DNA from: Nitrospira sp.
Lineage (GTDB): Bacteria; Nitrospirota; Nitrospiria; Nitrospirales; Nitrospiraceae
Direction of reading: 5' to 3'
Assembly (NCBI GenBank): GCA_040981125.1
Contig: JANRMQ010000009.1
Span: forward strand, 73,624-137,623
Length of the DNA stretch: 64,000 bases
Shown here: positions 41,925-45,718 of the stretch, one piece after another
How the letters are laid out: each line of letters starts with the position of its first letter
How positions within the stretch are numbered: the stretch's first letter is position 1
Position numbers and translations under genes: made by a program
The notes under the pieces: model-generated
What the model saw: only the letters and a program-made list of their open reading frames with translations
What the model was told of the DNA's origin: nothing
Database searches by the model: none

Positions 41925-42893
41925 TTACGAGGAGCTGCTATGAGAAGAAGTCGGCGGTTTCGGCTCAATTGTCGCCGTATTCCGCATTTGCGCCTGGATG
42001 ACATTGCTGCCGGGCGGGACACTTTGAGTCAGCCACACATTCCCGCCGATGATCGACCCTTTTCCAATTGTGATCCGCCCCAGGATCGTAGCGCCTGCGT
42101 AAATGACCACATCGTCCTCCACGATCGGATGGCGCGCATTGCCTTTGATCAGTCCGTTTGCGTCTTCCGGAAAGCGCTTGGCGCCGAGGGTGACGGCTTG
42201 ATACAGCCGGACGTGCCGGCCGATGATCGTGGTTTCGCCGATGACGACCCCGGTGCCGTGATCGATGAAGAAGTGTCCGCCGATTTCCGCCGCAGGATGA
42301 ATGTCGATGCCGGTATTCGAATGGGCGATGTCCGAAATCAGCCGCGCAAGCAGCGGCGCCCCCCAACGATGCAGTTCATGCGCCAAGCGGTAATAGATAA
42401 TCGCCGTCATCCCGGGATAGCACAACAGAATCTCCGACGGGTTGGTGGCGGCCGGATCGCCTCGATACGCGGCCTGCAAATCGCTGAACAAGAGCGCGCG
42501 GATGGCAGGCAATTGAGCGGCGAAATTGGCCGTAATGTCGATGGCCGTTTGTGTGAGACGGTTCTCCTGCGCGTCGCGCGAATCCGACATAAACAGGAGC
42601 CCTTTGCGGACTTGATCCTGCAACTCGCTCAATGTCAGGTGCAGCTGATTGCCGACGAAATAGTCAATGTTCCCTTCATTCAAATCCGTGCGTCCGTAAT
42701 GAGTCGGGAACAGGACGGCGCACAAACCGTCCAAGATGCCGAGGAGCGCTTTGCGCGACGGCAATTCTCTGATACGGCCGAGATGCCGCACATTGTGAGT
42801 GACTTCGCGCGATGTGCGTAGTTCCGCCACAATCTGGTCCAAGCGCCAAGTGGGCGACGTCCCACCCTGCGCGTCGATCGGATCCGATTTCAT
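41925..42893 (-). CDS. cysE: Serine O-acetyltransferase
   Basis: Hexapeptide core DIHPAAEIGGHFFIDHGTGVVIGETTIIG, N-terminal SATase helical domain. ATG lies 4 nt after the upstream stop. Confidence 0.85.
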   Translation of the reverse strand: MKSDPIDAQGGTSPTWRLDQIVAELRTSREVTHNVRHLGRIRELPSRKALLGILDGLCAVLFPTHYGRTDLNEGNIDYFVGNQLHLTLSELQDQVRKGLLFMSDSRDAQENRLTQTAIDITANFAAQLPAIRALLFSDLQAAYRGDPAATNPSEILLCYPGMTAIIYYRLAHELHRWGAPLLARLISDIAHSNTGIDIHPAAEIGGHFFIDHGTGVVIGETTIIGRHVRLYQAVTLGAKRFPEDANGLIKGNARHPIVEDDVVIYAGATILGRITIGKGSIIGGNVWLTQSVPPGSNVIQAQMRNTATIEPKPPTSSHSSSS

Positions 42894-42897
42894 GAGG

Positions 42898-44736
42898 TCA
42901 GTCCCTTCGAAGTTGATGCAGCGCCTGTACCAAGGCGTCAATTTCATCATGCGTGTTATAGAGAGCCAGTGACGGACGCACCGTACCGGCTAATCCATAT
43001 CGATGCACGGTCGGCTGCGCACAATGATGACCTGCACGGACGGCGATGCCATGCCGGTCGAGATGGCGAGCGACTTGTTCATTCGAAAATCCGTCCATCA
43101 CAAAAGACAGGACGCTCGCCTTGGACGGGGCGGTGCCGATCGGGCGGAGGCCTTGCACGGATGAGAGCGCATTTGTTGCATACATCAGCAGCTCGTGTTC
43201 GTACGCGGCAATCGCAGGCATCCCGATTTGGCCCACATAATCAATCGCGGCTCCCAGCCCGACCACTTCGGCGATGGCGGGCGTCCCTGCCTCGAATTTC
43301 TGCGGGATCCCTTGATACGTCGTCTTCTGGAACGTGACGTCCTTGATCATATTGCCGCCACCCTGCCACGGCGGCATGGATTCGAGCAGTTCGGTTTTTC
43401 CGTACAGCACGCCGATTCCGGTGGGCCCGAAAATCTTGTGACCCGAAAAGGTAAAGAAGTCACAGTCCATCGCTTGAACGTTGACCGGCATATGCGGCGC
43501 CGATTGCGCGCCGTCCACGAGGACAGGTACGCCCTGTGCATGGGCCATGGCAATGATTTGTTCGACGGGATTGATGGTTCCCAACGCGTTGGAGACCTGC
43601 GTGATCGACACCAATTTGGTACGTGGACCCAATAACCCGGCGAATTCGTCCAGGAGTAATTCGCCTGCGTCATTGATCGGCGCGACGCGAAGCGAGGCCC
43701 CGGTCTGCTCGGCCAGCATCTGCCAGGGCACGATATTGGCGTGATGCTCCATCGTCGTCAGGAGGATTTCATCACCCTGGCCGACATGCGCGCGGCCATA
43801 ACTCTGGGCCACCAGATTAATGGCCTCGGTAGTCCCCCGGACAAAGACGATTTCATTCGGATCGGCCGCGCCAATGAACCGCTGTACTTTTTCGCGACCG
43901 GCTTCGTACAGCTCTGTCGAGCGTTGCGCGAGTGTATGGGCTCCCCGGTGAATGTTGGAGTAGTCCCGATGATAAAACCGGGACGTGGCGTCGATGACGG
44001 CCTGCGGCTTTTGCGTGGTCGCCGCGTTGTCGAGCCAGATCAGCGGCATCCCGTTCACCTGTCGGTGCAAAACGGGAAAATCACGGCGAATGAGGTCGAT
44101 GTTCAACGAGGACAGTGATACGCCGTGGCCGAGCGTCGATGCGGGCGGATGTATCCGATCGTCGGAGATGCGAGGGCTTTGGAGAAAATAGAAATCAGGC
44201 GTGGAGAGCTCCTGGTGGTGCGAAAAGGGAAATCCGAGGCCGGCCGGCTTCGTAAAATATGGAATGGCCGAGGTGCTTCCCGGTGACGGTTGCGCGGCAG
44301 ACGGAGCATGTGCCTCTTGCGTCCTGCCGCCATTGCACCGTGGCTCGCCGAATGGATACGTTTCCCCGGATCCCGGGCTATGTCCACCGGACAGGGTGCC
44401 GGCCCCTGTCGGCGGGGACAAGGCATCCTGAAGTCCTGGGTGTACCGGCGGATGCGTGTCGGCTGTGGCCGATGGGTAGCCACCGGCGAGGCCGGGGTAG
44501 CGAGGCCCGCCTGTTGGAACTGTAGGCGCAGGACTTGGTCCGCCGGCTCTTTGCGGGAATACCGCCGGTGCTTCAGGTGGCGCAAGCGATGTGGACGTTG
44601 GAGCAAGCGATGTCGATGTCGGTATCGAAGAAGATCCGTCGGGTTCGGAGAAGAATTCGTTCGCCGGCCTCGTAATGAGTTCCGTGCCGAACGGGTCGTA
44701 CGGAAGGCCCGTGAGATTGTCGTCTGCGTGTGTCAT
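42898..44736 (-). CDS. SufS-type cysteine desulfurase with a ~210-aa disordered N-terminal extension (encapsulin cargo type)
   Basis: Class V aminotransferase core (LDNAATTQKP, SNIHRGAHTLA, FSGHKIFGPTGIGVLYG, RAGHHCAQP). The Pro/Ser/Gly-rich NTD contains LITRPANEFFSEP. Start chosen at 44736 (SD GAAGGGGTGAGG); 44760 is an alternative. Confidence 0.85.
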   Translation of the reverse strand: MTHADDNLTGLPYDPFGTELITRPANEFFSEPDGSSSIPTSTSLAPTSTSLAPPEAPAVFPQRAGGPSPAPTVPTGGPRYPGLAGGYPSATADTHPPVHPGLQDALSPPTGAGTLSGGHSPGSGETYPFGEPRCNGGRTQEAHAPSAAQPSPGSTSAIPYFTKPAGLGFPFSHHQELSTPDFYFLQSPRISDDRIHPPASTLGHGVSLSSLNIDLIRRDFPVLHRQVNGMPLIWLDNAATTQKPQAVIDATSRFYHRDYSNIHRGAHTLAQRSTELYEAGREKVQRFIGAADPNEIVFVRGTTEAINLVAQSYGRAHVGQGDEILLTTMEHHANIVPWQMLAEQTGASLRVAPINDAGELLLDEFAGLLGPRTKLVSITQVSNALGTINPVEQIIAMAHAQGVPVLVDGAQSAPHMPVNVQAMDCDFFTFSGHKIFGPTGIGVLYGKTELLESMPPWQGGGNMIKDVTFQKTTYQGIPQKFEAGTPAIAEVVGLGAAIDYVGQIGMPAIAAYEHELLMYATNALSSVQGLRPIGTAPSKASVLSFVMDGFSNEQVARHLDRHGIAVRAGHHCAQPTVHRYGLAGTVRPSLALYNTHDEIDALVQALHQLRRD

Positions 44737-44740
44737 GACC

Positions 44741-45718
44741 TCACCCCTTCGGATAGACATAGTCGTGGTAGAACCTGACGGACACGTTATCGAGGCGGGC
44801 GATGGCGTCTTCGGTCAACACGGCCGTGGAGAAATAGCGCGTGACCAAATGCGCCGCGATGCCGTGCTCGTTCGTCCCCATATAGCGTACGGAAAGACCC
44901 GGCTCGACTTCTCCGGTCACCCCGCCCTTTTGCAGGCCGACGACGCCTTGGTGCGGTTCACCGACGCGCAGCAGCAGCACGGTCGTTTTGCCGGCCTTGT
45001 CGATTTCCAGTTTGTTGGTCGGAATGACCGGCACGCCGCGCCAGGTAATAAACGGAGAGCCGAAAAAAGTCACGGTGGGCGGCGGGACACCGCGCCTGGT
45101 CGCTTCGCGTCCGAAGGCGGCGATTGCCTTGGGATGAGCTAGGAAAAACGCCGGTTTCTTCCAGACCAGGCTCAACAGTTCATCGAAATCGTCGGGTGTG
45201 GGCGTCCCCTTTCGGGTATTGATCCGTTGTCCCGGCGCGACTTCTTTTAACAGCCCAAACTTCGGATGATTGATCAGTTCCCACTCCTCGCGTTCCTTGA
45301 CGCCTTCCACGGTCAGCCGCACTTGTTCCCGCAGCTGGTCGATACGATTGCTGTAGAGATCGGTCACGCGGGTGTGCGTGTGCACGATCGCTTGGATAGT
45401 GCTGAGATGATATTCGCGTGGATTCACTTCGTAATCGAGGAAGGTCGTCGGCAGCTTCGGCTCGCCGTCATCGACCGTCAAGACTTCGACGCGGTCTTCC
45501 CCGAAGTCGTTGTCCGGCGTGCCGCTCGGCGCCTCCTTTGAGACCCGGTTCACACGATACACTCCGCCATCGATATTGACCCACGGGAGCAGTTTGTGCA
45601 GCCATCGTGGGGTGATCTGCACCATCTGGGGCACCGTGACCGTCGCAGTTGCAAGATTGCGGGCGGCCTTGGCGCTCAAGCTCGTCGCCTGACCCGTTGT
45701 CCCTGTCCGTTCAGCCAT
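44741..45718 (-). CDS. Family 2A encapsulin shell protein (SrpI-like)
   Basis: N-terminus [42 protein letters not shown] matches the Family 2 encapsulin signature as I recall it. At 325 aa there is no cNMP-binding insertion. AAGGAG lies 7 nt upstream of the ATG. The operon partners fit. Confidence 0.75.
   Translation of the reverse strand: [325 protein letters not shown]

Follow-up and report, generated by a model that had tools for sequence, protein, structure and literature searches.

Organization of the encapsulin locus

We analyzed a 64,000-nucleotide (nt) stretch of Nitrospira sp. DNA (contig JANRMQ010000009.1 of assembly GCA_040981125.1, positions 73,624 to 137,623), hereafter called the window; all positions below count from its first letter. 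Three closely packed open reading frames (ORFs) on the minus strand, at 41925-45718 and with a gap of 4 nt at each junction, are best explained as a whole as a Family 2A desulfurase encapsulin system of a Nitrospiraceae bacterium, an assignment that we hold with high confidence. They encode a shell protein, a cysteine desulfurase cargo (CyD) and a serine O-acetyltransferase (Table 1), and the E-values of the family matches for the operon proteins range from 1e-104 to 1e-235. A preliminary description of this stretch had proposed the same three genes with the same spacing from the letters and their translations alone, and its gene assignments were borne out by the searches reported here.

The shell gene stops at 44741-44743. 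Downstream of this stop codon, the first ATG to follow a purine-rich Shine-Dalgarno sequence is at 44736, which gives a desulfurase of 612 residues. An alternative ORF of 620 residues starting at 44760 overlaps the shell gene. The 612-residue form is the likely product because the corresponding gene call in the metagenome-assembled genome (MAG) GCA_050182315.1 (locus L086, 97.7% DNA identity to the window over 20 kb, with the same gene lengths) also has 612 residues and other relatives start at the equivalent position. The desulfurase gene stops at 42898 and the acetyltransferase ATG follows at 42893, which yields a product of 322 residues.

The operon forms the downstream part of a same-strand block of about 10 kb that comprises, in order, sbp-cysTWA, a sigma-54 activator gene, DsrE-like and ThiS-like genes, and the shell, desulfurase and acetyltransferase genes. 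The intergenic gaps in this block are 4-33 nt, with the 152-nt spacer between the ThiS-like and shell genes as the one exception. Beyond the acetyltransferase gene the transcription directions converge, which places the end of the unit at 41925.

Table 1. Features of the encapsulin locus and of the adjoining sulfur genes in the window
Feature	Position	Strand	Basis or remarks
Family 2A encapsulin shell, 325 aa	44741..45718	-	Profile, PDB and SrpI identity; AAGGAG 6 nt before ATG
Cargo cysteine desulfurase (CyD), 612 aa: disordered N-terminal loading domain and SufS-type catalytic domain	42898..44736	-	
CyD N-terminal cargo-loading domain, residues 1-205, low-complexity, predicted disordered	44122..44736	-	Composition; no Pfam domain
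Loading motif 1 LITRPANEFFSEP, CyD residues 20-32	44641..44679	-	Published consensus LARLANEFFS
Loading motif 2 STPDFYFLQSP, CyD residues 178-188	44173..44205	-	Published consensus AASPYYFLDG
Serine O-acetyltransferase, SrpH/EpsC type, 322 aa	41925..42893	-	NF041874; SrpH identity
ThiS-family sulfur-carrier protein, 66 aa, end GGG-Q	45871..46071	-	PF02597, TIGR01683
DsrE-like (DrsE_2 family) protein, 139 aa	46105..46524	-	PF13686, PDB 2QS7
Sigma-54 enhancer-binding protein, 353 aa	46529..47590	-	PF00158, GAFTGA motif
Sulfate ABC importer	47600..51559	-	sbp 50528-51559, cysT 49610-50446, cysW 48715-49593, cysA 47600-48718

The shell protein

The N-terminal signature by which the 325-residue product had been recognized as a Family 2 encapsulin shell lies at residues 18-58 of its ORF. 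In the profile searches, the protein passed over its full length the cut-offs of Pfam PF19307 ("Type 2A encapsulin shell protein SrpI-like"; 347.9 bits, cut-off 22.8) and of the family 2A equivalog NCBIfam NF041162 (461.4 bits, cut-off 380; profile positions 1-295 of 295). The family 2B model NF041163 also scored high, but only its positions 202-448, the portion that follows the cyclic nucleotide monophosphate (cNMP)-binding domain, could be aligned, to residues 67-314 of the shell. PF19307 was the sole match when the 325 residues were scanned with Pfam, and no cNMP domain was detected. Since the 2B model covers the post-cNMP portion only and no Pfam cNMP domain is present, the shell belongs to Family 2A rather than 2B, in line with the earlier argument that its length leaves no room for the insertion.

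Full-length PDB matches with E-values of about 1e-109 were obtained for 8T6R_A from Acinetobacter baumannii (the best match, E = 2e-109) and for 6X8M_A, which is SrpI of Synechococcus elongatus. The shell is 55-59% identical over its full length to the solved HK97-fold shells 8T6R, 6X8M, 9KSL and 8WOL, and its global identity to S. elongatus SrpI is 58.8%, a level of similarity at which the predicted HK97 fold is not in doubt. No recorded protein identical to the window shell was retrieved by an exact-match look-up.

The desulfurase cargo and the acetyltransferase

The product of the second gene is a SufS-type desulfurase (TIGR01979, 565 bits, cut-off 475) in which both the PLP-lysine motif SGHK and the catalytic-cysteine motif GHHCA are present. 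Its catalytic core had been suggested to begin at about residue 210, and this agrees with solved SufS structures, whose alignments start between residues 203 and 233 of 612 and mostly at 210-212 (PDB 8KG1, E = 3e-168, from residue 212); Pfam Aminotran_5 starts at residue 241 of the 620-residue ORF. The preceding extension, previously described as rich in Pro, Ser and Gly, has a P/S/G/T/A content of 60% in residues 1-205 versus 36% in the core, and the Pfam scan found no domain in these residues. A perfect tandem repeat of seven residues (PTSTSLA, two copies) also lies in this disordered domain, at 44581-44622 on the minus strand.

Nichols et al. described two motifs, LARLANEFFS and AASPYYFLDG, in the disordered cargo domains of such systems (PMC8049743), and both were found in the N-terminal domain of the window desulfurase. 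The sequence LITRPANEFFS occurs at 44647-44679, exactly where a LARLANEFFS-like motif had been noticed; the whole string of 13 residues, LITRPANEFFSEP, extends to 44641, and 7 of the 10 consensus positions agree. The second motif (PDFYFL) had gone unremarked in the preliminary description and could be located by a regular expression in 17 of the 19 CyDs that were examined. Between the window and L086 desulfurases, 10 of the 13 amino-acid differences fall within the N-terminal domain, a clustering that fits a fast-evolving disordered region.

The third product matches the EpsC model NF041874 (163 bits, cut-off 150) and shares 56% identity over 298 residues with S. elongatus SrpH, so that the cysE-type gene is rightly called an equivalent of srpH.

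Genes upstream of the operon

It had also been claimed that the operon is fused to the tail of an sbp-cysTWA sulfate importer array. The importer is real, since all four subunits exceed sulfate-specific NCBIfam cut-offs (NF008022, 516 bits; TIGR02139, 425 bits; TIGR02140, 413 bits; TIGR00968, 388 bits), and the start codons of its genes agree with the gene lengths called in L086. The fusion, however, is not direct: cysA is separated from the shell gene by the sigma-54 activator, DsrE-like and ThiS-like genes and the 152-nt spacer.

The sigma-54 activator contains the PF00158 domain (238 bits, residues 28-193), an AAA lid domain, the GAFTGA motif and a helix-turn-helix (HTH) domain. It carries no sensor or receiver domain and thus has a PspF-like layout; none of the NCBIfam equivalog cut-offs was reached. 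The DsrE-like protein matches PF13686 (33.6 bits, cut-off 25), and its best PDB match is 2QS7 (E = 1.6e-13), with which its cysteine is aligned. This single conserved cysteine, in the sequence ACSAGLEYMG, is kept in 10 orthologues. The best 120 database matches of the DsrE-like protein are all at least 76% identical to it, and every named one comes from Nitrospira, Nitrospiraceae or Nitrospirota; judged from these matches, the subfamily appears to be largely confined to Nitrospirota.

The ThiS-like gene is too short for the ORF list of the window, which holds ORFs of at least 80 residues, and was read directly from the sequence. Its product matches PF02597 (33.2 bits, cut-off 22.5), TIGR01683 (53.3 bits, cut-off 37.45) and PDB 2K5P (E = 6e-10). 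The Nitrospirota ThiS-like proteins all terminate in FYMGGG and a single further residue, which may be R, Q or L, and a Geobacter ThiS with a solved structure has the same C-terminal ending. Because of the extra residue after GGG, trimming would be required before adenylation, and no JAMM protease was seen near the ThiS-like gene. No rhodanese was found within the sulfur block of the window, and tblastn of the full 64 kb detected neither CysK nor ThiF.

Conservation of the locus among relatives

Gene context was compared over 83 related loci by a tblastn map. Among shell homologues, those of Nitrospira and Nitrospiraceae MAGs are the nearest, at 81-91% identity; the Verrucomicrobiota homologues come next. 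The order shell-desulfurase is kept in nearly all of the 83 loci, the few exceptions being contig ends.

The DsrE-like/ThiS-like pair lies directly upstream of the encapsulin genes in all 12 Nitrospirota loci with upstream sequence, as well as in the near-identical contigs L086 and L087, and sbp-cysTWA is found upstream of this pair in those Nitrospirota loci that are long enough to show it. In Nitrospirota the sigma-54 gene always lies in or beside the encapsulin cluster, at one of two places: it follows cysA in the window, L002, L004, L007 and L011, and the acetyltransferase gene in L006 and L012-L014.

Most Nitrospirota loci hold two further genes between the ThiS-like and shell genes, which encode a CysK-type cysteine synthase (TIGR01139, 450 bits) and a MoeB/ThiF adenylyltransferase (NF004281, 291 bits). 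Both are present at 8049-9872 of L002, with equivalents in L001, L003, L004, L007, L009-L012 and L014; L013 has CysK only, and the window, L005, L006, L086 and L087 are without both at this locus. When the DNA of the window is aligned with that of L002, the alignment breaks exactly at the ThiS stop codon and resumes just inside the shell gene. When the three core proteins were placed in a neighbour-joining tree, built with no bootstrap, the window grouped with L004, which has CysK and ThiF, and L005 and L006 formed a sister branch. This placement suggests that the CysK/ThiF pair may have been lost more than once.

The other 69 close relatives, mostly assigned to Verrucomicrobiota, have the shell, desulfurase and acetyltransferase genes, often with CysK and a sulfate importer nearby. 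In none of these 69 loci was a DsrE-like or ThiS-like gene found beside the shell.

Promoter and RNA searches

When up to 3 mismatches were allowed, the sigma-54 consensus TGGCACG-N4-TTGCW matched 96 times, versus about 100 expected by chance, and none of these matches lies in the spacers. A relaxed scan for TGG-N9-[TG]GC[AT] within 300 nt upstream of the sbp, DsrE, shell and sigma-54 genes in 8 loci revealed no conserved -24/-12 element. Scans for sigma-70 promoters and terminators remained at the shuffled background, and the minus strand of the 152-nt spacer has no terminator-like site. This spacer folds no better than shuffled sequence (z = +0.97), and only a weak alignment was obtained with its counterparts in L005 and L006. 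Neither Rfam nor tRNA searches gave a match anywhere in the window.

Further examination of the relatives revealed a palindrome about 10 nt upstream of the shell ribosome-binding site, which reads GCGGGCATCATGCCCGC in L012, has a related form in L014 and is absent from the window. The L013 form, GCGGGTATCATACCCGC, carries a symmetric change on both arms. The palindrome of L012-L014 could be an operator or a hairpin.

Comparison with known encapsulin systems

More than 1,400 desulfurase encapsulin operons have been catalogued. Family 2A homologues are up-regulated on sulfur starvation, and their cargo is loaded through the N-terminal domain (PMC8049743); elemental sulfur is stored in the encapsulin shell (Benisch et al. 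2024, PMC10836720). Four operon types have been published, consisting of shell and desulfurase with or without rhodanese and with or without acetyltransferase (PMC10836720). The operon in the window is of the published type with shell, desulfurase and acetyltransferase and no rhodanese, and its DsrE-like/ThiS-like neighbours are outside that scheme.

The SrpI system of S. elongatus PCC 7942 (plasmid pANL; PDB 6X8M/6X8T) shares with the window the shell and SrpH, at the identities given above, as well as the lack of a cNMP domain. The desulfurases of both have a disordered N-terminal domain of about 200-225 residues followed by a SufS core, with motif 1 of the window much nearer to the family consensus than that of S. 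elongatus. The gene orders differ: S. elongatus has cysK (srpG), acetyltransferase (srpH), shell (srpI), desulfurase (cyd) and rhodanese genes, whereas the order in the window is shell, desulfurase and acetyltransferase, with neither rhodanese nor cysK. In addition, the S. elongatus genes are plasmid-borne, whereas relatives of the window lie on contigs of 221 kb and 4.39 Mb, which suggests a chromosomal location.

The Family 2A desulfurase encapsulin of A. baumannii 118362 (PDB 8T6R), an elemental-sulfur storage compartment, has a two-domain desulfurase cargo as in the window, and motif 1 reads IARLANEFFSA in A. baumannii and ITRPANEFFSE in the window. Its operon consists of rhodanese, acetyltransferase, shell and desulfurase genes, whereas in the window the rhodanese is missing, the acetyltransferase comes last and the DsrE-like/ThiS-like pair lies upstream. 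The Nitrospirota clusters, such as those of Nitrospira sp. CP092080.1 (L002) and the Nitrospiraceae MAG L086, have the same block from sbp-cysTWA to the acetyltransferase as the window.

The link of Family 2A encapsulins with transporters is not new and has already been published: eLife Supplementary file 2 lists, among the neighbours of Family 2a shells, ABC permease (37.9%), ABC ATPases (29.8%), PALP enzymes (22.5%) and rhodaneses (48.7%). The ThiS, DsrE, ThiF and sigma-54 activator families are not in this table, which covers only families at 22.5% or more, nor did they turn up in the papers that were searched. Literature searches for Nitrospira with encapsulin and for ThiS/DsrE with encapsulin retrieved no paper with this arrangement, the term "ThiS" being swamped by the English word "this". 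The operon is a genuine and ordinary further member of the known Family 2A type, whose only unusual feature is the adjoining pair of small sulfur-carrier genes.

It had been remarked that proteins of this family are often annotated as hypothetical. This is true of many older Nitrospira MAG records, and it partly explains why the operon had been overlooked, but current NCBI annotation names both proteins, as in S. elongatus and Azospirillum records. The main use of the identification is the correct annotation of Nitrospiraceae genomes, in which many records still read "hypothetical protein"; current family models detect the operon.

Proposed function and alternative explanations

The steps of assembly, packaging and chemistry can be proposed from the close homology to the S. 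elongatus and A. baumannii systems (PMC8049743; PMC10836720). Sixty copies of the 325-residue HK97-fold shell protein would form a T=1 shell of about 24 nm, and the 612-residue desulfurase would be packaged through its disordered N-terminal domain of about 205 residues, whose short conserved motifs LxxRLANEFFS, near the N-terminus, and PDFYFL, immediately ahead of the catalytic domain, are presumed to bind to the inner shell surface. The encapsulated enzyme would then convert L-cysteine to L-alanine and accumulating persulfide or elemental sulfur, shielded from cytosolic reductants, while the co-translated serine O-acetyltransferase would provide O-acetylserine for cysteine synthesis. Because of the acetyltransferase, the upstream sulfate importer and the tight gene spacing, the system is probably part of the sulfur-assimilation response, lying within a sulfur-assimilation block and being expressed together with sulfate uptake, as judged from gene context.

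All sequence-testable defining features of a Family 2A desulfurase operon were found in the window, save a score above the cut-off of NF041166, and nothing was found that contradicts the family assignment. Several points nevertheless call for caution. On the cargo model NF041166, the desulfurase reached 782.1 bits, below the cut-off of 800; only residues 170-617 of the scanned 620-residue ORF are aligned, and the shortfall arises because the divergent N-terminal domain does not align, so this small deficit, on a model that carries the flag "exception", is no argument against the cargo assignment. In the shell, F262 and Y273 of SrpI, which lie near the cargo density, are replaced by Y279 and H290. 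An AlphaFold2 model of the shell has a predicted local distance difference test (pLDDT) score of 33 and a predicted template modelling (pTM) score of 0.19, and, being based on a shallow alignment of 18 sequences that are all at least 76% identical to the window shell, says nothing either way. As to the proposed co-regulation with the transporter, the scans placed neither a sigma-54 nor a sigma-70 promoter, and a promoter of the operon's own might lie in the 152-nt spacer.

A further such point concerns motif 1 itself. The codon CCG at 44665-44667 (minus strand) encodes Pro24 (LITR-P-ANEFF), which is unique to the window. In an alignment of 19 N-termini, position 24 is Leu or another hydrophobic residue in all 18 other CyDs, and both contigs that are 97.5-97.7% identical to the window at the DNA level (L086 and L087) have LITRLANEFF, so that the change is L24P relative to them. 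Either the best-conserved loading motif is polymorphic among strains here, or the sequence or its assembly contains an error; the change could weaken cargo loading. Pro24 also offers a ready-made natural variant for testing what the loading motif does.

The alternative that survives best leaves the compartment intact and concerns its relation to the genes upstream. The encapsulin operon and these genes might be separate adjoining units, with a promoter for the former in the 152-nt spacer and with the DsrE-like and ThiS-like proteins serving the transporter operon or thiamine or molybdopterin chemistry. In its support, no gap in the block other than this spacer is sizeable, the thiamine ThiS equivalog model recognizes the ThiS-like protein above its cut-off, the Verrucomicrobiota relatives have the same encapsulin operon with neither DsrE nor ThiS, and the window lacks the neighbouring ThiF and CysK that would complete a local pathway. 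On the other hand, the pair has stayed directly upstream of the shell in 12 of 12 Nitrospirota loci with upstream sequence in spite of the moves of the sigma-54 gene and the apparently repeated loss of CysK/ThiF, the spacer has no terminator-like site on the minus strand, and no thiG, thiH or moaD/E genes are nearby. We regard this separation as a realistic possibility, albeit one toward which we do not lean.

Far less would have to be conceded to the view that the desulfurase serves iron-sulfur cluster assembly as a housekeeping SufS and adjoins a capsid-like gene by coincidence. Its catalytic domain is of the standard type II SufS kind, and the slightly low score on the cargo model and the Leu-to-Pro change within the loading motif might be cited in its favor; yet no sufBCD, sufE or sufU gene is adjacent, the extension of 205 residues contains both loading motifs, and the gene lies 4 nt after the shell gene in the window and follows the shell throughout the related loci. 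On account of the missing suf neighbours, the loading extension and the linkage to the shell, this view was rejected as very improbable. The idea that the 325-residue protein is a major capsid protein left over from a prophage was rejected as well and has a negligible chance of being correct. The phage major head matches (phrog_212, 23 bits, E = 7e-5, which would fit the known viral (HK97) ancestry of the encapsulin fold; NF045672, 17 bits) are weak and fall very far short of the 348-461 bits reached with the encapsulin models. The locus has no genes for terminase, portal, protease or tail proteins, and it is surrounded by genes of sulfur metabolism that are conserved in two phyla.

A candidate sulfur relay in Nitrospirota

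Within the Family 2A assignment, the DsrE-like/ThiS-like pair deserves separate consideration. According to Benisch et al., how the stored sulfur is remobilized is unknown, and a rhodanese, present in about half of the operons, has been proposed for this role (PMC10836720). From gene context, the DsrE-like and ThiS-like proteins may be the sulfur acceptors of this lineage, in place of that rhodanese, a speculative idea to which we give a low probability. The pair has been retained beside the shell even after the loss of CysK/ThiF, and there is no rhodanese at the Nitrospirota locus, which makes the two proteins specific and testable candidates.

A more elaborate version can be considered, in which the rhodanese has been replaced in Nitrospirota by a relay that would carry sulfur out of the compartment into cysteine via a protein thiocarboxylate. 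The relay would consist of the DsrE-like protein as persulfide carrier and the ThiS-like GGG-X carrier, together with, ancestrally, CysK and MoeB/ThiF, and with the sensor-less sigma-54 activator. We consider this scheme speculative and rather unlikely as it stands. If true, it would be a concrete candidate for remobilizing encapsulin-stored sulfur.

A known parallel is CysO-CysM-MoeZ, a protein-thiocarboxylate route to cysteine in Mycobacterium tuberculosis. As in that route, the Nitrospirota relatives encode a ThiS-fold carrier, an E1-type adenylyltransferase and a pyridoxal phosphate (PLP)-dependent cysteine synthase together. Unlike that route, the synthase is of the CysK rather than the CysM type, the E1 enzyme (278 residues) has no rhodanese domain, the carrier ends in GGG-X instead of GG, and no JAMM protease was seen. 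The set is complete in relatives, which have all three genes, and incomplete in the window, where only the carrier (GGG-Q) is found and neither E1 nor synthase is encoded anywhere in the 64 kb. The significance of the locus would rise only if the Nitrospirota-specific DsrE-like/ThiS-like partners interact with the compartment.

Other features around the locus

Several additional genes were observed on either side of the block. Downstream of the operon, on the opposite strand, a TOBE/Mop-like ORF of 71 residues (40634-40849, plus strand) was placed by mapping from L086. A second, truncated ORF with a sigma-54-interaction domain (207 residues, no HTH; 39727-40350, minus strand) adjoins a cytochrome bd-like oxidase subunit of 647 residues (37739-39682, plus strand), and this pair is also called in the near-identical MAG L086. 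Upstream, an Asp/Glu racemase-family gene (51635-52384, minus strand) separates sbp from a DUF2325 gene (52391-52771); L086 has the racemase-family gene as well, and Nitrospira L002 lacks it at this place. Finally, a block conserved upstream of sbp in Nitrospirota (52768-55978, minus strand) encodes a ModA-like oxyanion-binding protein (TIGR01256, 166 bits) flanked by proteins of 537 and 243 residues that have no family match.

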